NCBI GenBank assembly: GCA_964548875.1
Contig: CAZJSP010000003.1
Location: forward strand, 1 to 35,942
Reading direction: 5' to 3'
Origin: an uncultured Candidatus Saccharibacteria bacterium
Lineage (GTDB): Bacteria; Patescibacteriota; Minisyncoccia; Minisyncoccales; JANBVM01
DNA length: 35,942 nt
A program made the position numbers and the translations under genes. The notes under the pieces are model-generated. The model searched no databases. It had not been told where the DNA came from and was given only the letters and a program-made list of their open reading frames with translations. Below, piece after piece: positions 11,710 to 26,790 of this stretch (positions within the stretch are counted from its first letter, which is position 1; each line of letters opens with the position of its first letter).

Positions 11710-12937
11710 AGATCCAACCATTTATCAACTAATTGAAAAAGAAATTCTTCGTCAAAAAGAAGGTATTGGTTTAATTGCTTCGGAGAATTATGCAAGCCCG
11801 GCTGTTTTAAAAGCCGTTGGTACTCCCTTAAGCAATAAATATTCTGAGGGATATCCCTTTAAAAGGTATTATGGGGGGAACCAATTTATTGACGAAATAG
11901 AAAATTTAGCAATTGAAAGAGCTAAAAAACTATTTGATGCAGAGCATGCGAATGTTCAGCCTCATTCTGGCTCTCAAGCTAATGCTGCCGTTTATTTGGC
12001 CCTTCTTAATCCAGGGGACAAGGTTTTAGGTTTTGATTTAAATGCAGGAGGACATTTAACTCATGGCTCTTCAGTTAACTTCTCAGGAAGACTCTATGAT
12101 TTTAAGCATTACGGAGTAGATAAAATAACTGAAATGTTAGACTATGATGAAATTGAAGAAATAGCTTTAAGTTTTAAACCAAAGTTGATTATTGCTTCAA
12201 CTACTGCCTACTCTAGAATTCTTGATTTTAAAAAATTTAAAGAAATTGCTAAAAAAGTTAATGCTTATTTAATGGCCGATATTGCTCATATCGCTGGCCT
12301 TGTTGTAACCGACCTTCACCCCTCTCCTTTCCCTTATTGTGATGTTGTGACTAGTACAACTCATAAAACATTAAGAGGGCCTAGGGGGGCGCTTATCCTC
12401 TCTAAAAGAGAATTAGCAGATACTATTGACAAGGCTGTTTTCCCTGGAACTCAAGGAGGACCCTTTGAAAATGTTATAGCGGGTAAAGCAGTTTGCTTTT
12501 TAGAAGCGATGCAAAAATCATTTCGTGAATATCAAGCTACTGTTTTGTCTAATGCAAAGGCTATGGTGAATGAGTTTCAGAAGCAAGGAGTGAGAGTTGT
12601 AAGTAGGGGAACCGATAATCATTTATTTATAATAGACATTTCTCAGTTTAATTTGAGCTCTCGTTTAATACAAGATGAACTAGAGAAATCAGGAATTTAT
12701 GTTAATAAAAACACAATTCCTTTTGATCAAAAATCTCCTTTTGATCCTTCAGGAATCAGAATGGGAACTCCTTCCATAACTACTAGGGGAATGGGTGAGC
12801 AGGAAAGCAGAGAAATTGTTAGACTAATTGTTAGATTGATTAAAAATCTACATAGACCAAAGATTAAAAAAGAAGTTAAGGAAAAGGTAAAAGATATTTG
12901 TAGTTCTTTTCCTATTTATGAGAATTTAAATTGGTAG
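11693..12937 (+). CDS. glyA: Serine hydroxymethyltransferase (start at ATG 11693)
   Basis: LIASEN, NKYSEGYP..RYYGG, GGHLTHG, TTHKTLRGPRG PLP-lysine motif. Confidence 0.97.
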   Translation: MELENRDPTIYQLIEKEILRQKEGIGLIASENYASPAVLKAVGTPLSNKYSEGYPFKRYYGGNQFIDEIENLAIERAKKLFDAEHANVQPHSGSQANAAVYLALLNPGDKVLGFDLNAGGHLTHGSSVNFSGRLYDFKHYGVDKITEMLDYDEIEEIALSFKPKLIIASTTAYSRILDFKKFKEIAKKVNAYLMADIAHIAGLVVTDLHPSPFPYCDVVTSTTHKTLRGPRGALILSKRELADTIDKAVFPGTQGGPFENVIAGKAVCFLEAMQKSFREYQATVLSNAKAMVNEFQKQGVRVVSRGTDNHLFIIDISQFNLSSRLIQDELEKSGIYVNKNTIPFDQKSPFDPSGIRMGTPSITTRGMGEQESREIVRLIVRLIKNLHRPKIKKEVKEKVKDICSSFPIYENLNW

Positions 12938-12939
12938 AA

Positions 12940-14394
12940 ATGAAAAAAAAGATATTTAAACCAGTTATTGGTCTTGAAATTCATTCTGAACTAAAAACAA
13001 AATCTAAAATGTTTTGTTCTTGTCCAAATGATTTTAACTCTGAGCCGAATAAAAATATTTGCCCTCTTTGTCTTGGTCATCCAGGAACTTTACCGGTAAT
13101 TAATCAAGAAGCCGTTAAGCAAGTCATTAAGGCTGGGCTGGCTTTGAATTGTGAAATTGCTGAAGTGTCAAAGTTTGATAGAAAAAACTATTTTTATCCT
13201 GATCTACCCAAAGGGTATCAGATTTCTCAATATGATATGCCTTTTTGTAAAAATGGTTTTTTAAAAATTAATAATAAAAAAATTAGAATTAGAAGGATTC
13301 ATTTAGAGGAAGATGCGGGCAAACTTATTCATACTCATCAAAATTACAGTTTAGTTGATTTTAATAGGGCGGGAGTTCCTTTGATGGAGCTAGTAACTGA
13401 GCCCGATATTTATTCAGCTGAGGAAGCTATTTCTTTTGCTAAAGAATTACAATTGATTTTACGTTATTTAGATATTTCAGAAGCTGATATGGAAAAAGGA
13501 CAAATGAGAATTGAGGTTAATATTTCCCTTTCTCAATCTTCAGGGAAGCCAGATTTATCAGGAACCAGAATTGAGGTTAAGAATTTAAATTCTTTTAAAT
13601 CTGTAGAGGGAGCAATTGAATATGAAATTAAAAGACAATCAAGAGTTTTAGAAAAAGGGAAGAAAATTATTCAGGCTACTAGAGGTTGGGACGCTGACAA
13701 AAGAAAAACTATTGATCAGAGAAAAAAAGAAGACGCTCATGATTATCGCTATCTTCCAGAACCAGACTTATTACCTCTTATTTTTTCAAAAGAAGACATT
13801 GAAAGTATTAGGAAAGATGTTCCTGAATTACCCCAAGAAAAAAGAATTAGGTTTAAAAATATTTACCAATTAAAAGAAGATGATGTTGAATTTTTTATTC
13901 AAAATATAGAAATTGGATCTTTCTTTGAAAGGGTTATTGATATTTTTAATAAAAAGAAAAAAAAGAATTTTAATAATTTGGTTCAGTTAACAGCTAATTA
14001 TTTAATTAGTGATTTGCAAGGGCTACTTAATCAAAGCGAGGACATAGAAGAAATTTTATTCTCTCCAGATTCTTTTGCTGAGTTTATCCAACTAATTAAT
14101 AGTAAAGAAATTTCTAGTAAAATTGCTAAAAAAGTTCTTGCTAAAATGTTTCGGACAGGCAAAAAACCTTCTTTGATTATTAAGAAAGAGGGTTTGAAAA
14201 AAATGAATGATAAGGAAGAAATAAACGAGGTTGTTCAAAAAGTTTTCAAGGAAAACTCTAAAGCAGTTTCTGATTTCCGTTCAGGTAAAGAGAATGCCTT
14301 TAACTTCTTAATTGGACAAGTTATGGCTAAAACTCGAGGTAGAGCTAACTTAGAAAAAGTTAAAAAAGTATTAAAAGAAGAGTTAAAAAATTAA
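12940..14394 (+). CDS. gatB: Asp/Glu-tRNA amidotransferase subunit B (start at ATG 12940)
   Basis: IGLEIH, RKNYFYPDLPKGYQISQ, HLEEDAGK, DFNRAGVPLMELVTEP, EVKNLNS, YRYLPEPDL. Confidence 0.97.
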   Translation: MKKKIFKPVIGLEIHSELKTKSKMFCSCPNDFNSEPNKNICPLCLGHPGTLPVINQEAVKQVIKAGLALNCEIAEVSKFDRKNYFYPDLPKGYQISQYDMPFCKNGFLKINNKKIRIRRIHLEEDAGKLIHTHQNYSLVDFNRAGVPLMELVTEPDIYSAEEAISFAKELQLILRYLDISEADMEKGQMRIEVNISLSQSSGKPDLSGTRIEVKNLNSFKSVEGAIEYEIKRQSRVLEKGKKIIQATRGWDADKRKTIDQRKKEDAHDYRYLPEPDLLPLIFSKEDIESIRKDVPELPQEKRIRFKNIYQLKEDDVEFFIQNIEIGSFFERVIDIFNKKKKKNFNNLVQLTANYLISDLQGLLNQSEDIEEILFSPDSFAEFIQLINSKEISSKIAKKVLAKMFRTGKKPSLIIKKEGLKKMNDKEEINEVVQKVFKENSKAVSDFRSGKENAFNFLIGQVMAKTRGRANLEKVKKVLKEELKN

Positions 14395-14399
14395 TTTAT

Positions 14400-14561
14400 T
14401 TGACCTGTTAAAATTTTCTTGTTACACTTTTATTATATGAAAACTAGAATTTCGCAAAAATATTATTACCACTACAACTTTCCCTTAGAAAGTTAGTTTT
14501 GGCTTACTTGCGAAAAATAATACTATCAAAACAACTAACTTTCTAACGAAAGTTAGTTTTT
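14400..14561 (+). promoter_or_regulatory. Promoter plus putative leader-peptide transcription attenuator
   Basis: TTGACC-17-TACACT with TG extension; mutually exclusive pairings 14476-14482:14488-14494, 14485-14498:14533-14546 (14 bp) and 14533-14543:14548-14558 followed by Ts. Confidence 0.7.
14437..14496 (+). CDS. 19-aa Tyr-rich leader peptide MKTRISQKYYYHYNFPLES
   Basis: ATG 8 nt after the -10 box; codons TAT TAT TAC CAC TAC; stop inside the antiterminator strand. Confidence 0.65.
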   Translation: MKTRISQKYYYHYNFPLES

Positions 14562-14574
14562 AATTATAAAAAAT

Positions 14575-15012
14575 ATGAAAAAAATAATTATTTTTGACTT
14601 TAATAGAACAATTTATGATCCAATTCAAGATAAGATTGAAGAAAATCTAGATTCTATTTTAAAAAACTTAATTGATAAAGGATACGCCTTATATCTTGTA
14701 AGTCATGGAATAGCCAGCGACAAAAGCTTTATTGAAGAATTTAAAATCATTAATTTTTTTGAAGAAACTTATGTCACTAGAAATAAAAAGAAAGCCTTTG
14801 AAAGAATTTTAGATAAAAGTGAGGCTCAACCAGAATATAGTTTTGTTATTGGCGACAGGATTGAGGCAGAAATTAGAATCGGGAACATTTTAGGATTTAA
14901 TACGGTTTGGTTTAGAAAGGGTAAGCTTAAAAATAGAAGGGGAGAAGGTAGGGACGAAAAAGCGAATTATGTGATTGGTGATTTAAATGAATTAAATAAT
15001 TTAATTAATTAG
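14575..15012 (+). CDS. HAD-superfamily hydrolase (capless, motif I DxN variant)
   Basis: IIFDFNRTIY, LVS, IGDRIEAEI..G..LG. Confidence 0.8.
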   Translation: MKKIIIFDFNRTIYDPIQDKIEENLDSILKNLIDKGYALYLVSHGIASDKSFIEEFKIINFFEETYVTRNKKKAFERILDKSEAQPEYSFVIGDRIEAEIRIGNILGFNTVWFRKGKLKNRRGEGRDEKANYVIGDLNELNNLIN

Positions 15013-15095
15013 TTCGTTAACAAATCGTTTAGCAATAGGAAACTGAAGATAGCTGTCTTTAGTTTCCTGTTGCTAAATGCAGCAGGAGGAGTGAT

Positions 15096-16276
15096 TTGAA
15101 TGAAACAACTATTAAAGAAGTTAAAAAAATGCTTCCCCTATAAGGGAAAGCAGTCTAAAGCATTATTTCAGGCTAACGCCTGATAATGCTAGGCTCCCTC
15201 TTTCAGAACGACAATTAGTCCAACTCAAAAGAGCACTATATTTAGTGCTCAGAGGGCTTGGGGCTATGGAAAGAATAGCCGGCACCCCTGGAACAATTCA
15301 TGATCCAGAAGGGCGGTGGAGGTGTTACAGAAGAATAACACTTAAGCCTGTACCAAGGAGAAATAGAAAATATTTTTCCTCCCTGCAAAATTTTACCTTC
15401 CCAAACGACCTTCCAGAAATTATTAAGGTAGACTTAGTGATTTCTAGAGAAGGAGAGGTTAGAATATGTAAGATTGATGCTCACAATCCTAACGGGATGG
15501 GGTATACGGCATTGGCAAGAGAGATGCATAATGCTAAACATCCCTCTTCAAAGCCTGGTTTTGGGATCCTTGAAGCGATAAAAAATCGAATAGATCCTGG
15601 AGAACGCTATATAATAGTCCTTCCACAAAAGGGAACTTTTTATGTTCCCGAGAATAAATTTATCGTGGAGGACTCAAAAAGATGGGAGTAAAATCTCGTC
15701 TTTTTGTGGACTCTGGTGGTAGTTTACCTTTAAGAGGAAACGACACCATAAGGAATATGCCTTTTGGTTTATCTGATCCTCTCTATATGAGTTTAATTAA
15801 AGGTTATAAAAAGGGGTTAAATTTTTAATCCCTCCTCGACTTTTTCTAGGGTCAAAATCCATTCTTTCTATTATTAGAAATGACGATAGAAATGAGTGGA
15901 TTGAACACTCTTTAAGAAGCTTTATAGATCTAAAAGCATTAAGGCTTCTACGAGAATTGATTCCTTCGACTTATTATTCCTCTATCCCTCCAATGGTTAC
16001 ATACGAAAACCATTAGGAGGGGCAGGGATGAGCGGTGTGATTTTCCCATGGGAAAAACCATTTAGTTTTTATCCAGGGAAGAATTATATTGCTCAAGAGT
16101 ATATTCCTTTAAGAAGAAAGGAATATTCTTACTGGGAAAAAGATGGAAATCTTGAAGTAGATAAATTTTACGAAAGATTTACCATCTGGCTCTCAAAGGG
16201 GGGTTTGGCGGACTGGGTTGTGACCGCCAGAACAAGCCCCAAAGTTCATGGGGCCACAGACTGCTTACAGATATAA
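15096..16276 (+). pseudogene. Circularly permuted ATP-grasp ligase (glutathionylspermidine synthase-like), about 390 codons, four single-base frameshifts
   Basis: Pieces join to give KVDLVI..RICKIDAHNPNGMGY, PPRLFLGSKSILSII, LIPSTY, KPLGGAGMSGV and YIAQEYIP; AGGAGGAG SD at 15084-15091; breaks near 15123-15129, 15670, 15808-15816 and 15992. Confidence 0.7.
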
Positions 16277-16280
16277 AAAA

Positions 16281-16340
16281 AGAGGGAATAGAAACGGGCG
16301 ATTCAAAGGATTCCCGGTTACTTTTCCCTCTCTATTTTTT
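16281..16340. terminator. Hairpin between convergent genes, probably a bidirectional terminator
   Basis: AGAGGGAA...TTCCCTCT stem flanked by A and T runs. Confidence 0.5.
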
Positions 16341-16372
16341 TATCTAAAATCAGCAGTTACTGCAAATATTTT

Positions 16373-18577
16373 TTAGTAATTATTCTTTAAAAAAACCTTA
16401 ATTAATTTTTCTGCTTTTTTAGATTTTTTTACCCATTGAATTTCTTTATCCTTTTTAAACCAAGTTTTTTGACGTTTACTAAACTGTAAGGTATGTAGAA
16501 TAATCTTTTCTTTTATTTTTTTTCTATCTTCTTTTGTTAAATTAAAATCAGGATAATAGGGGAACCATTCCTGGTAACCTATTATTTCTAGAGAGGCAGA
16601 GGGCCCTATTTTTCTTATAATTCCAATAGCTTCTTTTTCTAGTCCTTCCTTAAACATTTTCTCAACTCTTTGAGTAATTCTTTTTTCTAAGTTTTCTTTT
16701 TTAGGCTTAATTCCAATTTTTAAAACGTCAAATAAGGCGTCTTTTTTATTTCTTTGTTCCCAATAGGGTTGGCCTGTTTCCCTACAAACCTCTATAGCCC
16801 TTATTACTCTCCTTTTGTTTTTTCGATCGATTTTTTCAAAACCTTTAGGATCAAGTTTTTGATAAATAGTATTTAATTCTTTTAACGATTTTTTTTCTAA
16901 TTTTTTTCTTAAATCTTGATTGGGAGAAACTTCTGCAAGAGAAAAATTGCTTGTAAGTGCTTTTAAATAAAGACCGGTTCCTCCCACTAAAAAGGGTTGT
17001 TTGCCTTTTCTAATAACCTTTTTAATGGCTTTAAGGGCAAGATTTTTATAAACACCAACATTAAAGTCTTCTTTTAAAGAAATACAGTCAATTAGGTGAT
17101 GGTTAACAGTTCTTTGTTCTTTTTGGCTTGGCTTATCAGTTCCGATACCAATTTCCTTATAAACCTGTTTTGAGTCAGCAGAAATGATTTCTCCATTAAA
17201 TTTTTGAGCTAAATTAATAGCCATTTTTGTTTTGCCTGAAGCAGTAGGCCCTAGAATAACAATCAGCTTAGGTAGTTGTTTTTTTCCTTTTAATCCCCAA
17301 GGATAAGCTTCTTCAATTTTTACCTTTATTATCTCTCCTAAGTTAATGCTTTGATTGCTTCTAATTCTTACTGTTTTGTAGGTTCGACTCTTACCAAAAG
17401 CGTATTTTTTTGTTTTCTTATTTATTAAAATTTTAATAGTTTTGCCTATGTATTTCTTGTTATTTCTTAAAGCGCTTTTTTCTAAAACTTTTGTTAATTT
17501 ATTTTGTCTTCTCTGCTTTTCTTGAAGAGAAACTTGTTTCTTCATTTTTTCTGCTTCAGTTCCTTTTCTTTCTGAATATTTTGCTATATAGGCCATATCA
17601 AAACCTATTTCTTGAAAAAGACTTAATGTGTCTTTAAATTGCTTTTTTGTTTCTCCTGGAAAACCAACAATAATATCGGTTGATATCGCAATATTGGGCA
17701 CTTTTTTTCTAAGACTTCGAATTATTTTCTTATAGTCTTCAACCGTATAATTTCTATTCATTGCTTTTAAAATTTCATTATTACCAGACTGTATAGGAAT
17801 ATTTAAGTATTCTCCCAATTTTTCTGTTACTGCAATTTGGTTAATTAACTTTTTAGAAAAGTTTTTAGGATGAGGACTAGTAAACCTAATCCAAAAATTT
17901 CCTTTTGTTTGATCTATTTTTTTTAAAATTTCAGGAAAGTCTATTTTTTTATTACTAGGAGAAAGATAATCATTAACATTTTCTCCCAAAAGCCATATTT
18001 CTTTTGCTCCATTTTTAATGCTCTCTTTTACATCTTTAATAATGTTTTGATGTTTTCGACAAATAAGAGGGCCTCTGGTATAGGGGACAACACAATAAGT
18101 ACAAAAATTATTGCAACCAGAGGAAATAGGAATGAGAGCAGAGTGTTTGTTTTGAGAAAGAGAATTAATGTTGCAATAATTCATTGCAAGTTCTTTATTA
18201 AAACCCTTATCTCTTGGATTAAAAAAAGGATAATACTGTTTTTTTTGAATTATTTGGGGCCATCGCTGAAGAGTTTTAATTGGTAGAATAAAATTAAAGT
18301 ATTTTTTAAGTTTCAATCTGTCTTTTTCCAGCAAACAACCAGTTAAAAGGGTTTTTAGTTTTTTATTCTTTTTCTTTATCTTTTCAAATTTAGAGGCAAA
18401 ACCTCTTAATCTGTCAATAGCAGACTGCCTTATTGAGCAAGCATTAACTATAATTAAATCGGCATCTTTCGCTGAGGAAGCAGGTTGATAGTTGTTTTCT
18501 TCTAAGATTCGGGTTATTTTTTCTGAATCAGATTCGTTTTGCTGGCAACCATAGGTAAGAATAAAATATTTCTTCAT
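16373..18577 (-). CDS. miaB: Fusion of MiaB (tRNA methylthiotransferase) and MiaA (tRNA dimethylallyltransferase)
   Basis: N-terminal TYGCQQN/NACSIR/TGC, radical SAM CNNFCTYC, DIIVGFPGET and TRAM domain, followed in frame by GPTASGKT, ISADSKQVY, VGGTGLY, RRVIRAIEV, KRQKTWF. Confidence 0.92.
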   Translation of the reverse strand: MKKYFILTYGCQQNESDSEKITRILEENNYQPASSAKDADLIIVNACSIRQSAIDRLRGFASKFEKIKKKNKKLKTLLTGCLLEKDRLKLKKYFNFILPIKTLQRWPQIIQKKQYYPFFNPRDKGFNKELAMNYCNINSLSQNKHSALIPISSGCNNFCTYCVVPYTRGPLICRKHQNIIKDVKESIKNGAKEIWLLGENVNDYLSPSNKKIDFPEILKKIDQTKGNFWIRFTSPHPKNFSKKLINQIAVTEKLGEYLNIPIQSGNNEILKAMNRNYTVEDYKKIIRSLRKKVPNIAISTDIIVGFPGETKKQFKDTLSLFQEIGFDMAYIAKYSERKGTEAEKMKKQVSLQEKQRRQNKLTKVLEKSALRNNKKYIGKTIKILINKKTKKYAFGKSRTYKTVRIRSNQSINLGEIIKVKIEEAYPWGLKGKKQLPKLIVILGPTASGKTKMAINLAQKFNGEIISADSKQVYKEIGIGTDKPSQKEQRTVNHHLIDCISLKEDFNVGVYKNLALKAIKKVIRKGKQPFLVGGTGLYLKALTSNFSLAEVSPNQDLRKKLEKKSLKELNTIYQKLDPKGFEKIDRKNKRRVIRAIEVCRETGQPYWEQRNKKDALFDVLKIGIKPKKENLEKRITQRVEKMFKEGLEKEAIGIIRKIGPSASLEIIGYQEWFPYYPDFNLTKEDRKKIKEKIILHTLQFSKRQKTWFKKDKEIQWVKKSKKAEKLIKVFLKNNY

Positions 18578-18642: not shown

Positions 18643-20376
18643 TTAAAGATCGATATCTATCAAACCACTTTGAGATTCTTCCTCCTGATTTAAATTTTTT
18701 AATTGAATTTCAGCTGAACAGTTAACCCATCCCTCAGGAACATCACAAGGGGTGGGGAAGTAAACGCATTCTCCTCCGGCTGGATCTTGAGCTGGTGTAA
18801 TAACCTGGATACACATAATTGATCCATCTGTATTTGAAGAAAAAACACACTCCCCATCAACACATTTTACTTTTTCTGAAGATGATCCATCGGGAAGGGG
18901 ACAATCTTGATCTGTTTGGCATTCAAACTTTTTACTTGGTTCTTCACAAATACTATAACTTCTGCTTATTCTTATTTCTTGCAATCCATTACAACATTCT
19001 TGGTGGGTAGGACCTAAAACAGGATTTCTATTAACTTCTTCTCCTTCGTTAGCGCAAGGCAATTCAGTTTGACATTCTCCTCTGTAAAGAATTTCAACAT
19101 TAGCCTTTTGGGCCTCACAAATATTTTGATAGGTATTTCCGTCTTCTCCACAAACTGGAACAAAAATACTGGTACAGCTAATCTCTGAACCATCGTCTGT
19201 TTTATAGCCCCCAACTGTCTGGATTAAACTTTTTATATTGTTTGATAAGGATTGGCTAGATCTTATTTCGATGAAAGCATCAATATAATCTCCTTTTTCA
19301 AAATATTCTTGAGCCTTTTCTAAATCTATTTCCGATTCTTCTACTAATTCGAATACTTCTGGGAATATTGATTTATTTAAGCCCTTTTCAAGAATTAAAG
19401 ATTTAATCCCCTCTATTAAGTCATCGCCATAATCAATCTTTTCTACAACTGAATTCTCATCAGCTCCTGTTTGCTCTTTTATTTTTTGAAGATAGCTGTC
19501 TCTGACATTATTAATTATCTCTTTTGTATCCTCTCTTAATATTTTTCCTTTTAAATTATCAATAATATTAAGAATAATTTCTTGGTCTTCATCAATTTTT
19601 TCAATATATTCTTTTAATTGGCTTTGGTTTTCACTAGACAGACCCTCTAAAGAAGACTTTAGCTTTTCTATTCTTTCTTCTTTTTTCTCCTCTATTTTTT
19701 CTTGATATTCTGAAGGTAAATTTTCTTTTACTTTTTCTAAGATTCTTATATTTTTGATTTCGTCAAAGCTTCCGCTATCTATATTGTTAAAGGCTTCATT
19801 GATAGTTTCAGGAATATTAGAAACCCCCTGAACCTTGATTAAGATATTTTGAAAGCTTTCTAAATTGTTACTTCTAACCTCTCTTATCCTTTCTAAAGAT
19901 TTTTCTGGAATATTATCTTCTAGCTTTTCTAGTATTCTTTGATGAAGAATTTGTTGTTGAGAATATTCTTCGGAAAAATTTTTAACTTGTTCATTGTTTT
20001 CAGCTTGTTCTTGGATTTTATTAGTGGCTTTTTCTGTTTTCTCAATTCTTGATTGATATGAAGATATTGTTTTTTCAATTAAATCTTCATTTGATTCCAT
20101 TTCAACTATTTTTCTTAATTCAAGTAGTTTCTCATTTGCAAATTGAAACTCAAGCTCTGCTTTTTTAACAGAATCAAAAGTAAGAATTGATCTTACATTT
20201 CTAGTCCAATCCCTAATAAAATAAAAAGGGTGATTAGGTAGAACATTTGGTTCTCCTACTCCTAAATCAGAAGACTGAACCTGATACTCAGGAATAAAGT
20301 TCTCAGCCTCTAAGAAAGATATTGGTAAGCTTAAAATTAAGGAAAAAATCAGGAATGTAAAAATAAGTTTTTTCAT
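18643..20376 (-). CDS. Secreted/surface protein: signal peptide, DUF5667-like helical region, Kazal-type and other Cys-rich modules
   Basis: MKKLIFTFLIFSLILSLP; LPNHPFYFIRDW; PVCGEDGNTYQNIC...YRGEC; CQTDQDC; CIQVITPA..ECVYFPTPCDVPEGW. Confidence 0.75.
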   Translation of the reverse strand: MKKLIFTFLIFSLILSLPISFLEAENFIPEYQVQSSDLGVGEPNVLPNHPFYFIRDWTRNVRSILTFDSVKKAELEFQFANEKLLELRKIVEMESNEDLIEKTISSYQSRIEKTEKATNKIQEQAENNEQVKNFSEEYSQQQILHQRILEKLEDNIPEKSLERIREVRSNNLESFQNILIKVQGVSNIPETINEAFNNIDSGSFDEIKNIRILEKVKENLPSEYQEKIEEKKEERIEKLKSSLEGLSSENQSQLKEYIEKIDEDQEIILNIIDNLKGKILREDTKEIINNVRDSYLQKIKEQTGADENSVVEKIDYGDDLIEGIKSLILEKGLNKSIFPEVFELVEESEIDLEKAQEYFEKGDYIDAFIEIRSSQSLSNNIKSLIQTVGGYKTDDGSEISCTSIFVPVCGEDGNTYQNICEAQKANVEILYRGECQTELPCANEGEEVNRNPVLGPTHQECCNGLQEIRISRSYSICEEPSKKFECQTDQDCPLPDGSSSEKVKCVDGECVFSSNTDGSIMCIQVITPAQDPAGGECVYFPTPCDVPEGWVNCSAEIQLKNLNQEEESQSGLIDIDL

Positions 20377-20409: not shown

Positions 20410-22125
20410 CTATCTTTTTTTGTTTAGATCTATTTTTCTTTTTTTAATAAATTCTTTTAATTTCATTGGACCTAAATTCTTACCTTGGAATCTTGGACTA
20501 ACAGATTTATTTTTTACTTCTCTTTCTCCAACAATCAAAAGGTAAGGAACTTTTTGTATTTCCCCTTTTTTTATTTTCTTGGAAAGAGTTTCATCTTCAT
20601 CCTTCAAGACTGAACGAAAACCATTGTCTAGTAGTTCTTTTTGAACATCTTTAGCTCTTTTAGATTGTTTAGAGCTAATTGGAATAACCCATATTTGTTC
20701 AGGCGACAACCAAAAAGGTAGATTGCCAGCATAATTTTCCAACAACACCCCTAAAAATCTTTCAATTGATCCAAATAAAGCTCGATGAATCATATAGGGT
20801 CTTTTTTCTTTGCCTTTTTGATTAATGTAAGTCATGTCAAATCTTTCTGGAAGATTAAAATCTACTTGTATAGTAGTACATTGATGCTCTCTTTTTAAAG
20901 AATCTTTAACTTTAATATCGATTTTAGGACCATAAAAAGCACCTCCTCCTTTATCGGTAAGAAAGTCGATTTTATTGTCCTTAAGAGTTTTCTTAAGGGC
21001 TTGAGTAGCCTTTTTCCACTTATTTTCTGACCCAACATATTTATCAGGACGGGTTGAAAGATAAACCTTAAATTCTTTAAATCCAAAAACCCTGAATATT
21101 TTAAAACTTTGTTTAAGCAGTTCTTCAATTTCTTGAAAAAGATCTTTTTCTGAACACCAGATATGGGCATCGTCTTGAGTAAAGCCTCTTACTCTAGTCA
21201 GGCCATGTAATTCCCCTGATTTTTCATATCTATAAACTGTTCCAAATTCTGCATACTTAATTGGCAGGTCCTTGTAGCTTCTAATTTCACTCTGATAAAC
21301 CTTGATATGAAAAGGGCAATTCATCGGTTTGATTAAATATTGGTCTTTTTCAACATCCATAGGAGAAAAAAGACTTTCTTGATAAAAGTTCCAATGGCCG
21401 GAAGCTTTCCAAAGATCAACTTTTCCAATATGAGGAGAAATCAACCACTTGTAACCTTTTTGAGTTAATTCTTCTCTTAAATAGTTTTTCATTATTTGAA
21501 TTATTTTCGCTCCATTTGGTTGCCAAATAGGAAGACCAGGCCCAACTTCTTCATCAAACAAAAACAATTTTAATTTTTTACCTAAAATTCTGTGATCTCT
21601 TTTTTTAGCCTCCTCTTGATTTTTTAAATAATTCTTTAATTCTTTTTTTGTTTCAAATCCTACTCCATATATTCGAGTTAGCATTTTTCTGTTCTCATCT
21701 CCTTTCCAATAAGCTCCGGCTATTCTAGTTAATTTAAAAGACTGAGGATTAATTTCTTCAGTTGATTTAACGTGAGGGCCCCTACAAAGATCAATAAAAT
21801 CAGAGCTTTGATAAAAACTAGGAGTTTCTTCCATTTCTCTTATCAATTCTTTTTTATAGGGTTGATCTTTAAATTCTTTCTTTATTTCTTCTTTAGAAAG
21901 CTTAACTTTTCTGAAGGTAATATTCTTTTTAATATTTTGCCTCATTTTATTTTCAATTTCATCTAAATCTGTTTCACTAATTGGTTTAGAAAATTCAAAA
22001 TCATAGTAAAAACCATCTTCTATGGCAGGACCTATAGCAAGCTTTACGTTAGGGTATATTTCTTTTATAGATAAAGCCAAGATATGGGCTAATGAATGAC
22101 GAATTTTTTCTATTTTTTTAGACAT
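20410..22125 (-). CDS. thrS: Threonine-tRNA ligase (no N-terminal TGS domain)
   Basis: RHSLAH, GFYYDF, DLCRGPH, RDHR, KPMNCPFH, RVRGFTQDDAH, FYGPKID, HRALFGSIERF. Confidence 0.97.
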   Translation of the reverse strand: MSKKIEKIRHSLAHILALSIKEIYPNVKLAIGPAIEDGFYYDFEFSKPISETDLDEIENKMRQNIKKNITFRKVKLSKEEIKKEFKDQPYKKELIREMEETPSFYQSSDFIDLCRGPHVKSTEEINPQSFKLTRIAGAYWKGDENRKMLTRIYGVGFETKKELKNYLKNQEEAKKRDHRILGKKLKLFLFDEEVGPGLPIWQPNGAKIIQIMKNYLREELTQKGYKWLISPHIGKVDLWKASGHWNFYQESLFSPMDVEKDQYLIKPMNCPFHIKVYQSEIRSYKDLPIKYAEFGTVYRYEKSGELHGLTRVRGFTQDDAHIWCSEKDLFQEIEELLKQSFKIFRVFGFKEFKVYLSTRPDKYVGSENKWKKATQALKKTLKDNKIDFLTDKGGGAFYGPKIDIKVKDSLKREHQCTTIQVDFNLPERFDMTYINQKGKEKRPYMIHRALFGSIERFLGVLLENYAGNLPFWLSPEQIWVIPISSKQSKRAKDVQKELLDNGFRSVLKDEDETLSKKIKKGEIQKVPYLLIVGEREVKNKSVSPRFQGKNLGPMKLKEFIKKRKIDLNKKR

Positions 22126-22159
22126 ACTAATATTTTATCATAATTTTATTATTTTACTT

Positions 22160-22234
22160 AAAATAAAACCCCTTCAAAAAGAGGTTAGTTAATTATTAAA
22201 TAAAATTTCAACCAACCTCTTCTTAGAAAGGGTT
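22160..22234 (-). terminator. Long terminator-like hairpin between dnaE and thrS
   Basis: On the minus strand AACCC-TTTC-T-AAGAAGAGGTTGGTT pairs with AACTAACCTCTTTTT-GAAG-GGGTT, followed by TTATTTT. Confidence 0.7.
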
Positions 22235-22270
22235 CTTAGTGGTTATTTTAATTTTATAAACAAAAATCAT
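22223..22270 (-). CDS. Possible 15-aa leader peptide MIFVYKIKITTKNPF upstream of thrS
   Basis: ATG 8 nt after TTGCCA-17-TATAAT (22307-22279); ACC ACT Thr codons just before the hairpin base; stop inside the stem. Confidence 0.45.
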   Translation of the reverse strand: MIFVYKIKITTKNPF

Positions 22271-22308
22271 ATTTCGTAATTATAATCAAAAATAATGGTT
22301 ATGGCAAA

Positions 22309-25300
22309 TTAAATTTCTTTAATTTCTTCAATTTCATTACAAAGAATTTTTGGTGAATCTTCTTTTTTATCAATAGTTCCTGAAATTAAAACAATATTAT
22401 TTTCTTTAATTAGATGGGAGTTCTCTTCAAACACTGATGGAAAAACAACAACCTCAACTCGGCCAGAAAAATCTTCTAAGGTTAAAAAACACATTGGTCT
22501 TTTGCTTTTTTTAGTAATAATTCTATTAATTTTTAGAATAATGCCTCCAACCGTTACATGGCGATCTGGGACAGAGTTTAAATTAGAGATTTTAACAGCC
22601 CTCTTTTCAATAATATTTTTAAAATCATCTAGGGGATGAGAACTAATAAAAAGACCTAAAAGATTTTTTTCCCACAATAATTTTTCTTCTTTAGTTGCTG
22701 GTTCAGTTGGTTCAAGATTAATTTTCTCATCAAACTTCATTCCAGCAAAAAGAGCTTTTTGACCACTATTCTTTCTTTTTTCTTTTTCTCGACTTCTTTC
22801 AACGATAGTAGGGATATTTGAAAGAAGAGTATTTCTTTCAGCAAAATTATCAAATGCTCCAGCCTTAATTAAGCTTTCTAAAGCTCTCTTATTTAAATTA
22901 CGAGGACTTATCCTTGAAGCAAAATCATTAATTGATTGAAAGGTTCCGTTTTCCTTTCTCTCTTGAATAATGGATTCAACTATTTTAGCTCCTACATTCT
23001 TAACGGCTAAAAGACCAAAACGAATCTGATTTGTTTTAGGTACAACTGTAAAATTCCTCCAACTCTCATTAATGTCCGGTGGAAGAACCTCAAGGTTCAT
23101 TTTTTCACACTCTTTAATTAGGTCTCCAACTCTTTCATTGTCTGAACCAACTGATGTTAAAAGAGCGGCCATAAATTCAATTGGATAATTAGCCTTTAAA
23201 TAGGCTGTTTGATAAGCAATAAAAGCATAAGCGCAACTGTGTGAATTATGAACAATAAAATCATTGGCAAGAAAATTATGAGTATCCTTTATTGTTAAGT
23301 CATATGTTTCTTGTTTACCTATTGGTGTAATCTCTAAAATTTCATCCCAATAAACATCAGAATGGGCAAGATCAAGAACTGGTTTTGAAGAGTTTTGAGG
23401 AAGAGCTCTTCCGATAATTTCTAAAGTTTCTCTTGAATATCCTTTTTTGTTTTTATCTATCCATAATAATTTTTTAGAAAATCCATGCTTTTCGGCAAAT
23501 TCTGTAAAATTATAGCCAGCTTGAACTATTTTTTCTCTTATTTTTTCTCTTATTTCAATAGGGATGATGTCTTTGCTTCCTTTGACGCTCCATTTTTTAA
23601 TTTTTCCGTTAGTAGTTAAGTATTGCTTAATAGCCCCATCTAAGTCTTGTTTTTTCTTTCCAATAAGGTGTGATCTAATTACCCTGGAGAAGTTTTTTAT
23701 ATTTCTATATTGATTTATGGTTAAGATATAATCTTTTTTAACTTTTATTTTTCCTTTATTCTTGTACTTATTTTTTTTCTGATGAAGAGAAGCAACAACA
23801 CCTAATCTTAAAAGAAGATGTTGAATTTGTTTAGCTAGACTTAGAGAAGGGGTGGTGTAAAAAATCTGAGGACATTTTCTTTTTAAATTAATAGATCCAT
23901 TTTTTTGAAAAGTTTTAGCCAAAAGAATCGTAATTTGTCGTTTATTGAGACGGAACACGAATTCAGGGAAAGATTTTTCGGTGGGTTTTTTATTATATAT
24001 TCCTATTTTACGCATCCACTCTATTGCTTCAGAGGCTTTTTTCAAATTAACTCTCTCTATATAAAAAGAATTTTCTTGCTTGTTAAAAGCGACTTTTGTG
24101 TTTTTAAACTTTTCTAGTGATTTTTTATAATCTTGAATTGTTTTATTGTTATCAGAATAGAAATAGAATTCACGGGAATAGTAAGGGCTATTTTCTGCAA
24201 TCATATATCCTAATACAGCAAGTTGGTAGTCTTTTATATTGGCAATTCCCTTATTATTAATAGAAATTTCTCTTGCCAAGCCAATCCTGTCTCCTTTTTT
24301 TATGTTCTCAAGTTTTTCCCATCCCTTAATTGTAAGAAAAGGATGGTTTGAAGTTGATTTAATTTCTTTTCCTAGTCTGGTTTTTATTTTATAGACTTCT
24401 TTTTTCCCATTTTGAAAAACTTTTACAGTTGGAGATTCTTCAAGCTTTAATTCGTCATTAAGTGAGTGAATAGAGGGAAGCTTTTTATTATCATAAATCT
24501 CTTGAATAGTCGTTTTGCTTCCAGTCTTAGCGTTTATTATTTCTGTGTCCCCAGTTAAACACCTATTAAACCCATAACTAGCAAAAGGCAATATCCATTC
24601 CCATATTTTCTGAGCAACTTTTTCGCTAATCTGGTTATCTTTCATTCCTTGAATTAGCTTCTTTTTTTGCTCAACAAGTAAAGATCTTATTTTCTTACCT
24701 ATAGCTTTTCTCAAAATATCAGCTTCTGAAAGGCTAAACCCGGCTAATTCTTGAGCAATTTTCATTAAGTCTTCTTGATAAACGGGAAGCCCATATGTCT
24801 TTTTAAGAATTTTTTCTAACTTAGGATGCAAATACTCAACCTTTCTTTTTCCTTTTTTACGTCCAATATATTCTGGAATAAAAGACATTGGGCCGGGCCG
24901 ATAAAGAGCAATCATAACAATTAAATCTTCTAAGTTGGTCGGCTTTAACTGCTTTAAATATTTTCTGAATCCAGCTGATTCTAATTGAAAAACACCTATA
25001 GTTTTTCCTTTTTGTAAAAGCTTGTATGTTTTTTTATCATCAAGAGGAATTAAGCTAATGTCTATTTTTTCATTTTGAACAGCATAAATTCTAGACAAAG
25101 TATCTTCAATAATGGTTAGGTTTTTTAATCCTAAAAAGTCCATCTTTAAAAGTCCTAGGTCTTCTATGGCGTGCATTTCATATTGAGTAATAATATCCTT
25201 TTCATTTTGAGAGGGGTGTTGAAGAGGGACACTATTGTCTAGAGGGTTTTTTGAAATTACTACTCCGCAGGCATGGGTTGAAATATGCCTAATTACCCCC

Positions 25301-26790
25301 TCTAATTTTTTAGCTAAATTAATAAGGACCTCTCCTTTATTACTGTTTTTATATAATTCTTTTAATTCTGAAACCTCGTCTAAAGCCTCGTCTAAAGTGC
25401 TACCCGTAGGAATCATTTTAGCTATTCGATCACAATAACTATATTCATACCCTAAAGACCTACCAACATCCCTAATAGATCCTCTGGCTGCCATTGTTCC
25501 AAAAGTACAAATTTGAGCCACATTATTTCTTCCATATTTTTGAGCCACATAATCTAAAAGTTCATTCCTGCGCCGATCAGTAAAGTCTAAATCAATATCA
25601 GGCATTGAAATTCTGGCTGGGTTTAAAAATCTTTCAAAAAGTAGGCCCCATTTTAATGGATCTATGGTTGTAATGCCTGTAGTGTATGCAACAATTGATC
25701 CTCCAACCGAACCTCTTCCTGGACCAACAACAATTCTTTGGTCTTTAGCCCATTTAACAAAGTCTTGAACAATTAAGAAATAAGAAGAAAATCCCATCTT
25801 ATTAATAATGTCTAGTTCGTAATTAAGACGATCTTTTACTTCTTCGCTTAAGGGTTCTCCATATAGTTTTTTAGATCCTTTTAAACATAATTCTTTTAAA
25901 TACTCTTGACTTGTCTGGTTTTCAGGGGTTTTAAAACCTGGAATCTTGGTTTTTCCTAATACAAATTCAAAATTACATCGATCTGCTATTTTTTGAGTAT
26001 TTTTAATGGCCTCGGGGTAATCCTTAAAGTCTTCAGCCATTTGTTCTGGTGAACGAATTGAGAAATCATCTGCTTTCATACTGATCCTTTCAGGATCATC
26101 AATATCAGCCCCTGTATTAATTAACATTAAAATGTCTTGAGCTTCAGCATCTTCTGGTTTTAAATAATGAGAGTCATTTGTTGCAACCAAAGGAATATCA
26201 AGTTCTTTTGAAAGCCTAACCAATCCTTCATTTGCAATTTTTTGTTTTGAGATATTGGGATGATGTTGTAGTTCTAAGTAAAAATTATCTTTACCAAATA
26301 TTTTCTGATATTTAAGAGCTGTTTCTTTTGCTTCCTTATATTGGTCAGCTAAAATTAAGCTCGGAACCTTGCCCTGGATACAGGCCGTTAAAGCAATCAA
26401 TCCTTCTGAATGTTTAGCCAACAGTTCTTCATCAACTCTAGGTCTATAATAAAAACCCTCCAGATGAGCTTTAGTAATCAGCTTAACTAAATTTTTATAT
26501 CCTGTTTCATTTTTAACTAAAAGAACCAAGTGATACCTCTTGTTGTCTATGTTGGGTCTTTTTTGTTGCATCCCTTCATAAGCAAGATACATTTCAGCCC
26601 CAATAATTGGTTTAATGCCGGCTTTTTTTGCTTTTTTATAAAATTCTATAGCTCCATACAAAACACCATGGTCGGTAATGGCAACTGAATCCATTCCTAG
26701 TTTCTTTGTGTATTCTAATAATTCGTCTATTTTCGATAAACCATCTAAAAGAGAATAGTGAGTATGAACGTGGAGATGAGTAAACTTCAT
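22309..26790 (-). CDS. dnaE: DNA polymerase III alpha subunit containing an intein
   Basis: HLHVHTHYSLLDG PHP domain, GPGRGS, PDIDLD, KMDFLGL, YGFNR/SH, C-terminal OB fold. Confidence 0.97.
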   Translation of the reverse strand: MKFTHLHVHTHYSLLDGLSKIDELLEYTKKLGMDSVAITDHGVLYGAIEFYKKAKKAGIKPIIGAEMYLAYEGMQQKRPNIDNKRYHLVLLVKNETGYKNLVKLITKAHLEGFYYRPRVDEELLAKHSEGLIALTACIQGKVPSLILADQYKEAKETALKYQKIFGKDNFYLELQHHPNISKQKIANEGLVRLSKELDIPLVATNDSHYLKPEDAEAQDILMLINTGADIDDPERISMKADDFSIRSPEQMAEDFKDYPEAIKNTQKIADRCNFEFVLGKTKIPGFKTPENQTSQEYLKELCLKGSKKLYGEPLSEEVKDRLNYELDIINKMGFSSYFLIVQDFVKWAKDQRIVVGPGRGSVGGSIVAYTTGITTIDPLKWGLLFERFLNPARISMPDIDLDFTDRRRNELLDYVAQKYGRNNVAQICTFGTMAARGSIRDVGRSLGYEYSYCDRIAKMIPTGSTLDEALDEVSELKELYKNSNKGEVLINLAKKLEGVIRHISTHACGVVISKNPLDNSVPLQHPSQNEKDIITQYEMHAIEDLGLLKMDFLGLKNLTIIEDTLSRIYAVQNEKIDISLIPLDDKKTYKLLQKGKTIGVFQLESAGFRKYLKQLKPTNLEDLIVMIALYRPGPMSFIPEYIGRKKGKRKVEYLHPKLEKILKKTYGLPVYQEDLMKIAQELAGFSLSEADILRKAIGKKIRSLLVEQKKKLIQGMKDNQISEKVAQKIWEWILPFASYGFNRCLTGDTEIINAKTGSKTTIQEIYDNKKLPSIHSLNDELKLEESPTVKVFQNGKKEVYKIKTRLGKEIKSTSNHPFLTIKGWEKLENIKKGDRIGLAREISINNKGIANIKDYQLAVLGYMIAENSPYYSREFYFYSDNNKTIQDYKKSLEKFKNTKVAFNKQENSFYIERVNLKKASEAIEWMRKIGIYNKKPTEKSFPEFVFRLNKRQITILLAKTFQKNGSINLKRKCPQIFYTTPSLSLAKQIQHLLLRLGVVASLHQKKNKYKNKGKIKVKKDYILTINQYRNIKNFSRVIRSHLIGKKKQDLDGAIKQYLTTNGKIKKWSVKGSKDIIPIEIREKIREKIVQAGYNFTEFAEKHGFSKKLLWIDKNKKGYSRETLEIIGRALPQNSSKPVLDLAHSDVYWDEILEITPIGKQETYDLTIKDTHNFLANDFIVHNSHSCAYAFIAYQTAYLKANYPIEFMAALLTSVGSDNERVGDLIKECEKMNLEVLPPDINESWRNFTVVPKTNQIRFGLLAVKNVGAKIVESIIQERKENGTFQSINDFASRISPRNLNKRALESLIKAGAFDNFAERNTLLSNIPTIVERSREKEKRKNSGQKALFAGMKFDEKINLEPTEPATKEEKLLWEKNLLGLFISSHPLDDFKNIIEKRAVKISNLNSVPDRHVTVGGIILKINRIITKKSKRPMCFLTLEDFSGRVEVVVFPSVFEENSHLIKENNIVLISGTIDKKEDSPKILCNEIEEIKEI
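23245..24561 (-). mobile_element. 439-aa intein with a degenerate LAGLIDADG homing endonuclease (aa 744-1182 of DnaE)
   Basis: Begins CLTGDT, block B TSNHPF, block F TYDLTI..THNF, ends VHN followed by Ser; removal restores GFNR-SHSCAY. Confidence 0.93.

Follow-up and report, generated by a model that had tools for sequence, protein, structure and literature searches.

Does the region ahead of a small HAD-like hydrolase gene in an uncultured Candidatus Saccharibacteria bacterium act as a regulatory switch and, if so, what does the switch sense? The region (positions 14400–14574, + strand) lies in a stretch of DNA of 35,942 nucleotides (nt), referred to below as the window, which is contig C3 of the genome G000 (526 kb in 51 contigs, 96% complete). 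A preliminary description of the region had proposed a tyrosine-sensing leader-peptide attenuator. We conclude, with a probability of roughly 0.7, that the region is a ribosome-mediated leader-peptide transcription attenuator that would control a mobile cassette of two genes, the HAD gene and a ligase gene. Comparison with the leaders of homologous HAD genes indicates that the element is a real and conserved attenuator. The signal to which it may respond is considered separately, after the anatomy of the leader, its homologs and the cassette itself.

Anatomy and folding of the leader

The leader begins with a promoter (14400–14428, + strand) composed of TTGACC (14400–14405), a 17-nt spacer and TACACT (14423–14428), with TG ahead of the second hexamer. 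Promoter-like hexamers are not above chance in the window (15 seen vs 16.2 expected from shuffled sequence). The ATG of an upstream open reading frame (uORF) is located at 14437, only 8 nt past the −10 hexamer, and hence the uORF is probably leaderless. It encodes MKTRISQKYYYHYNFPLES* in 19 codons (14437–14496, + strand), and its core is aligned without gaps with the uORFs of relatives. Within this core lies the candidate regulatory cluster TAT TAT TAC CAC TAC AAC (Y Y Y H Y N; 14461–14478, + strand), which aligns with the core [Y/F]-W-H-[Y/H/F] of the family of leaders described in the next section.

The end of the uORF and the RNA that follows can form three helices. In the minimum-energy fold the default 5' domain (14450–14515, + strand) contains helix 1:2, formed by AACTTTC (14476–14482) and GAAAGTT (14488–14494), and an outer 8-bp stem (14450–14457/14508–14515) that encloses it and was absent from the preliminary description. 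Segment 2 (14485–14498, + strand), the 5' strand of the antiterminator, overlaps both the 3' arm of hairpin 1 and the stop codon of the uORF (14494–14496). Pairing of segment 2 with segment 3 yields helix 2:3, a perfect 14-bp duplex (14485–14498/14533–14546, −16.2 kcal/mol). Segment 3 is also the 5' arm of the intrinsic terminator, helix 3:4 (14533–14566, + strand, −11.2 kcal/mol), which consists of an 11-bp stem (14533–14543/14548–14558), the loop TAAC and a T-rich tail.

When the sequence from 14100 to 14900 was read again, all features of the preliminary description were found at their places: the promoter, the near-leaderless uORF with its position and length, and the helices 1:2, 2:3 and 3:4. 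Two reservations apply. Helix 1:2 is weak when taken alone, and the U-tract of the terminator is short, being TTTTT including two bases of the stem, followed by AATTAT. An independently assembled contig has exactly the same leader sequence from 14406 to 14586. No family of Rfam 15 (Trp, His, Phe, Thr and Leu leaders, T-box, riboswitches) matched the window leader at the gathering score. With E up to 10, the sole Rfam match over the leader was a chance hairpin on the opposite strand, far below the gathering score.

The RNA of the leader folds with an energy of −27.3 kcal/mol, compared with −12.7 ± 2.9 kcal/mol for shuffled sequences (z = −4.97; none of 200 shuffles was as good), and the minimum-energy fold of the free RNA is helix 1:2 plus the terminator. 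A ribosome was represented by masking a footprint from A−18 to A+12, the treatment being thermodynamic only. When any of the five YYYHY codons (14461–14475) occupies the A site, the masked RNA forms the 2:3 antiterminator and no terminator, whereas with AAC at 14476 or the stop codon in the A site it forms the terminator. The stall geometry proposed earlier, with the antiterminator forming when the ribosome is on the cluster and the terminator when it is at the stop codon, is thus reproduced by the folds. We also scanned G000 for terminator-like hairpins with an open reading frame (ORF) of at least 120 amino acids (aa) starting within 110 nt, which yielded 84 hairpins. When these were ranked by the pairing energy of the upstream competitor, the window leader was second (−16.4 kcal/mol) and the leader of a thrS-like gene was first; these two were the sole top-ranked entries having a uORF.

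The anatomy, which is read directly from the window, is consistent with the following course of events. Transcription would start at or beside the ATG of the uORF. If the uORF is translated smoothly or not at all, segment 2 would be held in helix 1:2 or covered by the ribosome at the stop codon; with segment 2 unavailable, the 3:4 terminator would form and RNA polymerase would stop 16 nt before the HAD start. If a ribosome is delayed at the aromatic, His and Asn codons that immediately precede segment 1, it would cover segment 1, helix 2:3 would pair, the terminator would be blocked and the cassette would be transcribed. Translation of the uORF, the role of stalling in the choice of the fold and the cause of the stall are the parts of this scheme that we infer.

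Homologous leaders, their helices and their codons

Loci encoding HAD homologs were fetched from genomes (53 loci) and metagenomes (66 loci). Leaders were sought in non-identical loci whose upstream sequence was 200 nt or longer; these numbered 104, namely 103 HAD-homolog loci and the window. A terminator-like hairpin ending no more than 70 nt before the HAD start was found in 41 of the 104 loci, and 31 of these 41 were parsed automatically as a uORF, hairpin 1, a competitor and a terminator. The leaders of L091 and L092 were recovered by hand, and those of L112, L097 and L046, via a covariance model. The total is 37 leaders including the window. In L112 the order of elements is leader, ligase, HAD. 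L035, L037, L040 and L053 are metagenome-assembled genomes of Saccharibacteria.

The end of the terminator stem is separated from the HAD start by 7–43 nt among the leaders and by 16 nt in the window, and there is no room for a second promoter between the terminator and the HAD gene. A promoter of the form TTGAC(A)-16/17-TAnnnT with a score of at least 9 of 12 is present ahead of 29 of the 37 leaders. In 12 of the 37, the window included, the gap between the −10 hexamer and the ATG equals 6–9 nt, which suggests leaderless translation.

In the MAFFT alignment the window leader and 13 others have a mean column identity of 65%; the window sequence TATTATTACCACTA-CAACTTTCC is aligned there over GGCTATTGGCATTACGAGCTTTCC of L145. 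The covariance model R1 assigns 60.9 bits to the window (E = 2.7e-9). Judged by these similarities, the window element is homologous to leaders that precede homologs of its small HAD gene, and most of these are from Patescibacteria. The homologs were reached only via the HAD protein: a DNA search with the 186-nt leader against 60 relatives, at E up to 10, produced short AT-rich chance matches only. Over 151 sampled genomes of the class, R1 matched only G000 and G080, and inspection of the latter match (35.9 bits) revealed an ordinary terminator without a uORF, so that it was rejected as a leader. R1 gave no second copy of the leader in G000 above E = 0.08. In 18 related loci, the Rfam matches at the gathering score were limited to tRNA and tmRNA.

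Leaders of the same type are found in other settings as well. In L032 (326–2225) the genes after the leader are a GATase1 / peptidase C26 gene and then a GCS2-family ligase gene, in L046 (2289–3438) it is located ahead of a SLOG (LDcluster4)-HAD fusion, and in L031 (2706–2984) two leaders stand in tandem. Genes of tRNA or tmRNA are present in the fetched flanks of 8 of the 33 leader-bearing loci (L084, L085, L094, L031, L033, L044, L076 and L099). No consistent identity was observed among the flanking tRNA genes of these 33 loci, which fits a cassette moving between genomes. A terminator-like hairpin was also noticed in L069 (around 1150) between the HAD and ligase genes, with an upstream competitor of −31.8 kcal/mol; it may be a second, internal attenuator.

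Covariation was assessed in 21 model-aligned rows, one spurious minus-strand row being kept among them. The alignment was fitted to helices 1:2 plus 3:4, and helix 2:3 was not part of the model. In helix 2:3, 90.0% of cells are paired, compared with 25–57% with a slid partner, and 6 of 12 pairs change on both sides. For helices 1:2 plus 3:4 the respective values are 91.4% and 11 of 20 pairs. In both cases none of 500 shuffles reached the covariation score, although the aligned rows are kin, so these shuffle tests overstate significance. Taken separately, helix 1:2 is paired in 94.3% of cells and shows two-sided changes in 3 of 8 pairs, the corresponding values for helix 3:4 being 89.6% and 8 of 12 pairs; the slid-partner control over all three helices gives 25–60% of paired cells. 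In L052, L053, L069, L129, L043, L078, L093 and L094, segment 2 stays complementary to segment 3 despite unrelated helix sequences, and in our comparison such divergent members are stronger evidence than the shuffle counts. The median energy of the upstream competitor is −18.4 kcal/mol for 19 leader terminators vs −12.6 kcal/mol for 116 other terminator-like hairpins of the same loci (one-sided Mann-Whitney p = 4e-8), and the share of competitors at or below −16 kcal/mol is 95% vs 26%. These comparisons indicate that the three mutually exclusive helices are maintained in evolution. The preliminary description had suggested a search for a conserved uORF and covarying stems near HAD homologs; the uORF, the helices and their covariation all turned out to be conserved.

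The position of the codon cluster is conserved together with the helices. Of the 31 parsed leaders, 29 have a Trp codon 3–24 nt before segment 2, and for 20 of them this spacing is 16–19 nt. Codon enrichment was counted in the 8 codons before segment 1 in 34 de-duplicated leaders (272 core codons). Trp is enriched 10-fold, His 6.7-fold, Tyr 3.8-fold, Asn 3.1-fold and Phe 1.5-fold. Ser (1.0-fold) and Cys (1.1-fold) are at background. Leu (0.22-fold) and Asp (0.07-fold) are depleted, and so are Glu, Pro, Val, Ile and Lys. The hallmark of the relatives is thus a single Trp beside His, within the core [Y/F]-W-H-[Y/H/F]. The window YYYHY is aligned to GYWHY, its Y-Y-H standing where relatives have Y-W-H, and six consecutive Tyr, His and Asn codons are kept. 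An ATG-initiated open frame leads to TGG in frame 0 in 32 of 32 leaders, vs 2 and 1 in the other frames, the frame 0 count being partly due to construction. The third codon position is the least conserved (0.70 vs 0.79 and 0.77).

The cassette and its genomic setting

The first gene of the cassette (14575–15012, + strand) encodes a capless HAD-like hydrolase of 145 aa (Pfam Hydrolase_like, 32.6 bits vs the cut-off of 22). Its homologs, about 146 aa long, are 34–45% identical and are named mostly as Patescibacteria. The profile of the family matches the core only of solved HAD hydrolases of about 240 aa. The window ORF is intact and retains all 17 invariant residues of the family. Motif I of HAD phosphatases is DxDx[T/V], where the second Asp acts as the general acid/base. 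Here motif I reads D8-F-N10-R-T12 without exception in all 32 aligned homologs; Asn takes the position of the second Asp, and this mini-HAD may not be an ordinary phosphatase. The gene had been called a HAD phosphatase in the preliminary description: the assignment to the HAD fold is upheld by the Pfam and structure-profile matches, whereas the phosphatase motif I is replaced by DxN.

In 22 loci the HAD gene is followed by a same-strand ORF of at least 400 aa (411–460 aa). No Pfam family scores over the threshold for this ORF (CP_ATPgrasp_2, 17.1 bits vs 32; GSH-S_ATP, 11.3 vs 23), and the listed homologs are unnamed or called hypothetical, none having a Pfam domain on record; like those of the HAD, they are assigned mostly to Patescibacteria. 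An AlphaFold model of the intact protein from L093 (pLDDT 90.2) was compared with known structures using Foldseek. The top matches were 8fbz, 1m0w and 2hgs, eukaryotic-type glutathione synthetases (E = 1e-16, TM 0.6–0.67), and there were also matches to 3n6x, YgiC, YjfC, glutathionylspermidine-synthase-like proteins and 'Ligase Cp1B'. The protein atlas agrees with this assignment. The model thus points to a glutathione-synthetase-like ATP-grasp ligase fold for the second gene, and the pair of a HAD gene and a peptide-ligase-like gene, proposed earlier for the region downstream of the leader, is supported.

In the window the second gene is present as a remnant (15100–16276, + strand), delineated by tblastn with intact homologs. 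Residues 25–190 map to 15161–15664 in frame 3, residues 253–308, to 15816–15983 in frame 1, and residues 325–427, to 15989–16273 in frame 3; its coding sequence is interrupted and spread over three or more reading frames. Two sequencing runs have low-depth contigs that are identical to the window and span the frame break near 15160. DNA contigs cover the window partly, 15668–16171 being outside the coverage. The GC content is 0.36–0.42 over the ligase remnant vs 0.22–0.33 over the leader, the HAD gene and the flanking gatB and miaB-miaA. The window ligase is probably a pseudogene in a recently acquired cassette.

The whole cassette, that is, the leader, the HAD gene and the ligase remnant, occupies 14395–16372 (+ strand) between gatB and the convergent miaB-miaA fusion. 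The genes of this region are, in order, SHMT, GatB (12931–14394), HAD, broken ORFs up to 16276, and miaB-miaA (16373–18577). In both same-genus genomes the cassette is absent from this place and the gatB stop codon abuts miaB-miaA. Among 13 family genomes lacking the cassette, gatB is directly followed by convergent miaA/miaB in 11, and the other two have a different inserted gene. Since gatB adjoins miaA/miaB directly in the relatives, the cassette is lineage-specific. No ortholog of the HAD protein was found in 60 relatives, the best matches having E = 5e-5 and 28–33% identity. This distribution suggests that the cassette is patchy, mobile and horizontally scattered.

The MiaB-MiaA fusion (16373–18577, − strand) is one 734-aa ORF with UPF0004, Radical_SAM, TRAM and IPPT domains. 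In relatives, both fusions and separate miaA and miaB appear to exist, judging by the lengths of the ORFs abutting gatB. The flanks of only one of 119 other loci contain a miaA homolog (L131, directly upstream of the leader). The 487-aa ORF located upstream in L093 is MetRS rather than gatB, and no other locus has gatB. As the order of gatB and miaA/miaB is found in relatives without the cassette, its adjacency to miaB-miaA is positional. Further along the window (18643–20376, − strand), a 577-aa protein contains DUF5667 and a Kazal-type serine protease inhibitor domain (E = 5e-7), which, to our knowledge, seems unusual for a bacterium of this kind.

The trigger, alternative explanations and relation to known systems

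The likeliest trigger of the switch, at about even odds, would be a shortage of charged tRNA for the codons of the cluster. Under such a trigger the leader would be a multivalent gauge of the Trp, His, Tyr and Asn supply in an auxotroph, with this copy weighted to Tyr and His, and a mainly Tyr- and His-weighted response of the window copy is possible. No match to chorismate synthase, TrpA or HisD was found in G000, in agreement with the auxotrophic host assumed in the preliminary description.

Two other modes of sensing were rejected. Queuosine sensing would involve NAY codons (Asn, Asp, His and Tyr), and it is ruled out by the strong depletion of Asp and by Trp being the top residue. A T-box in which UGG would pair with the 3' end of tRNA is ruled out as well: only about 30 nt of the transcript precede UGG, leaving no room for Stem I, and there is no Rfam match.

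A second leader-peptide attenuator is predicted in the same window (22126–22308, − strand), between dnaE and the thrS-like gene (20410–22125). It is built like the HAD leader, with a promoter TTGCCA-17-TATAAT, 8 nt, the uORF MIFVYKIKITTKNPF (22270–22223), a competitor and a terminator. In 12 of the 13 other evaluable family genomes the thrS uORF has 3 to 8 consecutive Thr codons and a terminator; the window uORF is reduced to ITT, with 2 Thr vs 3 to 8 in the relatives. This leader looks like a classical Thr attenuator of the lineage, and control of aminoacyl-tRNA synthetase genes by a leader peptide is known from E. coli pheST with the pheM leader. Since the thrS leaders carry Thr runs, codon-specific attenuation would operate in this lineage, and the precedent favours a codon-level trigger for the HAD leader. 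The neighbouring DnaE gene (22309–26790, − strand) has an intein with a LAGLIDADG domain (Intein_splicing, E = 1e-27; LAGLIDADG_3, E = 1.5e-8). One more leader of this general appearance was observed in L093 (4889–5060). It has a Phe-rich uORF MKTIKTTYFFFSFTCSGGDKGTCSC starting 9 nt past the −10 hexamer TATGCT, probably leaderless, and a terminator, and it precedes a prephenate dehydratase gene (PF00800, E = 4e-42); no antiterminator was found there in masked folds.

Several observations weigh against the attenuator model. In our heuristic search, 63 of the 104 loci had no terminator directly upstream of the HAD gene; in several of these the HAD gene abuts the upstream gene. Masked folding across the family was noisy: in 15 of 35 leaders the free RNA already forms the antiterminator and no terminator pairs, and masked minimum-energy folds were used for the window only. 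Because the free RNAs of many relatives already prefer helix 2:3, the model would need kinetic control, which has to be assumed. The cluster is mixed and is not a single-codon run like that in the thrS leader of the same genomes. Among the sequencing runs listed for the locus there is no RNA run. In the window copy, moreover, the near-invariant Trp is missing (L052 being the only other Trp-less parsed leader), hairpin 1:2 has only −5.0 kcal/mol on its own, and the partner ligase gene is broken. For these reasons the window copy may be relaxed or decaying.

A more radical possibility, that the window copy is a decaying relic of a transferred cassette whose leader regulates nothing useful, is somewhat unlikely. 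The ligase is split over at least three frames, with one frame break inside contigs of two runs that match the window exactly, the cassette is absent from both same-genus genomes, and the GC content of the ligase remnant exceeds that of its surroundings; the loss of Trp, the weak helix 1:2 and the reduced thrS leader of the same genome point in the same direction. However, the HAD ORF is intact with its 17 invariant residues, and so are the promoter, the uORF, the 14-bp antiterminator and the 11-bp terminator. Decay of this copy would also be compatible with an attenuator in the family.

The same RNA switch may be operated by the nascent peptide. The core [Y/F]-W-[H/F] (YYH in the window) would then arrest the ribosome from within the exit tunnel, either intrinsically or in dependence on a small molecule or drug, as in the TnaC, SpeFL, Erm and Cat leaders, which are precedents of the arrest type. 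The mixed cluster fits an arrest peptide as well as it fits reading of codons, and it differs markedly from the homopolymeric Thr runs that thrS leaders of this lineage carry, which keeps this explanation alive. It would account for a near-invariant single Trp in place of a codon run and for the conservative substitutions, since two bases have to be replaced to turn Trp into Tyr, as in the window, and L040 and L044 differ by an exchange of His and Tyr. In one subfamily the N-terminal MxNFPDxSRxNS is kept through synonymous Arg codons CGT, AGA and CGA. However, the stop codon lies anywhere from 21 to 72 nt away from Trp, which is preceded by 8 to 26 residues. The Trp codon and the RNA helix stay at a roughly constant distance from each other, and sensing at the codon level would account for this as well. 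There is no conservation of the peptide across the family beyond the core of 3–4 residues, and the window and L052 have no Trp at all. On balance we regard arrest by the peptide as unlikely.

Sensing of Tyr-tRNA specifically, or of the ms2i6A37 status of tRNAs modified by MiaA/MiaB, as put forward in the preliminary description, is quite improbable. The window itself does suggest it: four of five codons encode Tyr, the antiterminator forms only with the A site on YYYHY, and the miaB-miaA fusion is the next gene, with L131 providing another leader preceded by a miaA homolog; codons starting with U constitute 99 of the 272 core codons. In the relatives this picture is not retained. A Tyr run (at least 4 Tyr in 5 codons) occurs in none of the 103 related upstream regions, three of which have 3 Tyr, so that the search for conserved Tyr-rich uORFs suggested earlier gave no such family feature, and the run of the window is aligned with Y-W-H-Y. 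The proposal of a leader-peptide attenuator is supported, but the Tyr run is peculiar to the window copy and Tyr is not the hallmark of the family. Among codons starting with U, only those of Trp and Tyr are clearly enriched, while Leu is depleted and Ser and Cys stay at the background level. His and Asn, which are enriched, have codons that do not start with U and are read by tRNAs outside the set modified by MiaA. The adjacency of gatB and miaA/miaB exists without the cassette in 11 of 13 relatives, and miaA is present in the flanks of 1 of 119 loci, so the link to MiaA drawn from the neighbouring gene is not supported.

Finally, although a conserved short ORF stands beside an ATP-grasp-type ligase and ATP-grasp enzymes acting on ribosomal peptides exist, it is very improbable that the small ORF encodes a precursor or substrate peptide of the ligase, with the hairpin setting only the peptide:enzyme ratio, given that its C-terminal part is read in different frames (the window and L090 vs others) and has different ends, that RNA pairing is what is kept there and the complementarity of segments 2 and 3 would have no role, and that the leader also occurs before the GATase1 / peptidase C26 gene (L032), before the SLOG-HAD fusion (L046) and in tandem (L031).

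Classical proteobacterial attenuators include trpL, pheL, hisL and thrL, and the ilv and thr leaders are multivalent. The HAD leader shares with them a promoter-proximal short ORF, codons located 5' of segment 1, three exclusive helices and a terminator before the gene. In E. coli trpL the Trp codon is located about 19–22 nt from segment 2, close to the 16–19 nt observed in 20 of 29 leaders here. Unlike the classical attenuators, the HAD leader would control a non-biosynthetic cassette in a probable auxotroph; its cluster is mixed (Trp, His, Tyr or Phe, and Asn) with one Trp, the uORF is often leaderless, and there is no similarity, by sequence or by model, to any Rfam leader family. The thrS leaders of relatives differ from it in having a single-codon run that matches the amino acid of the enzyme. 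Earlier work deals with the pheL attenuator (PMC3082878) and with the theory of attenuator sensitivity (PMC1183508).

Leaderless uORFs of this kind have a parallel in mycobacteria, where leaderless polycysteine short ORFs are reported to be cysteine-responsive attenuators (bioRxiv 10.1101/834739). They resemble the HAD leader in the leaderless short first cistron, in sensing the supply of an amino acid and in the control of an operon, and they differ in the phylum, the codons and the regulated genes; the HAD leader has a clear terminator/antiterminator pair. In E. coli, a uORF is reported to respond to ribosome-targeting antibiotics of several classes (PMC12121999). As in such arrest and drug-sensing uORFs, a ribosome stalled on the short uORF of the HAD leader would remodel the downstream RNA, and, as in TnaC, the single conserved Trp is flanked by aromatic residues. 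Unlike arrest peptides, the HAD leader has neither a fixed Trp-to-stop or Trp-to-Pro spacing nor a long conserved peptide, and its switch is of the antiterminator/terminator type, not one based on Rho or on exposure of a ribosome-binding site.

Supplementary files apart, our literature search found no attenuator, leader peptide or cis-regulatory element for Patescibacteria or the Candidate Phyla Radiation. The mechanism is the known leader-peptide attenuation; the leader family, the codon cluster, the frequent leaderless start, the host group and the cassette are new as far as checked. We tentatively suggest, at slightly less than even odds, that the leaders form an undescribed family of leader-peptide switches of Patescibacteria, which would gauge host-derived aromatic amino acids and His via tRNAs or the nascent chain and would induce a pathway of the ligase and the DxN-HAD. 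Copies of this switch family in metagenome-assembled genomes labelled as other phyla are possible.

Patescibacteria are tiny, mostly uncultured and auxotrophic. If the suggestion is true, these uncultured episymbionts would have in the leader their first defined cis-regulatory sensor, which would also point directly to the purpose of the pathway. Ribosome-coupled attenuation, often leaderless, would operate in Patescibacteria, with the thrS and cassette leaders sharing one genome. The cassette is predicted to be switched on by slow decoding of Trp, His, Tyr and Asn codons. As the promoter and the terminator look canonical, E. coli or a cell-free system may be suitable for assays of the switch. 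The leader would tie a physiological signal to an anonymous, horizontally scattered pair of a ligase and a DxN mini-HAD, a pair that in L032 is accompanied by glutamate-cysteine-ligase-like and gamma-glutamyl-hydrolase-like genes.

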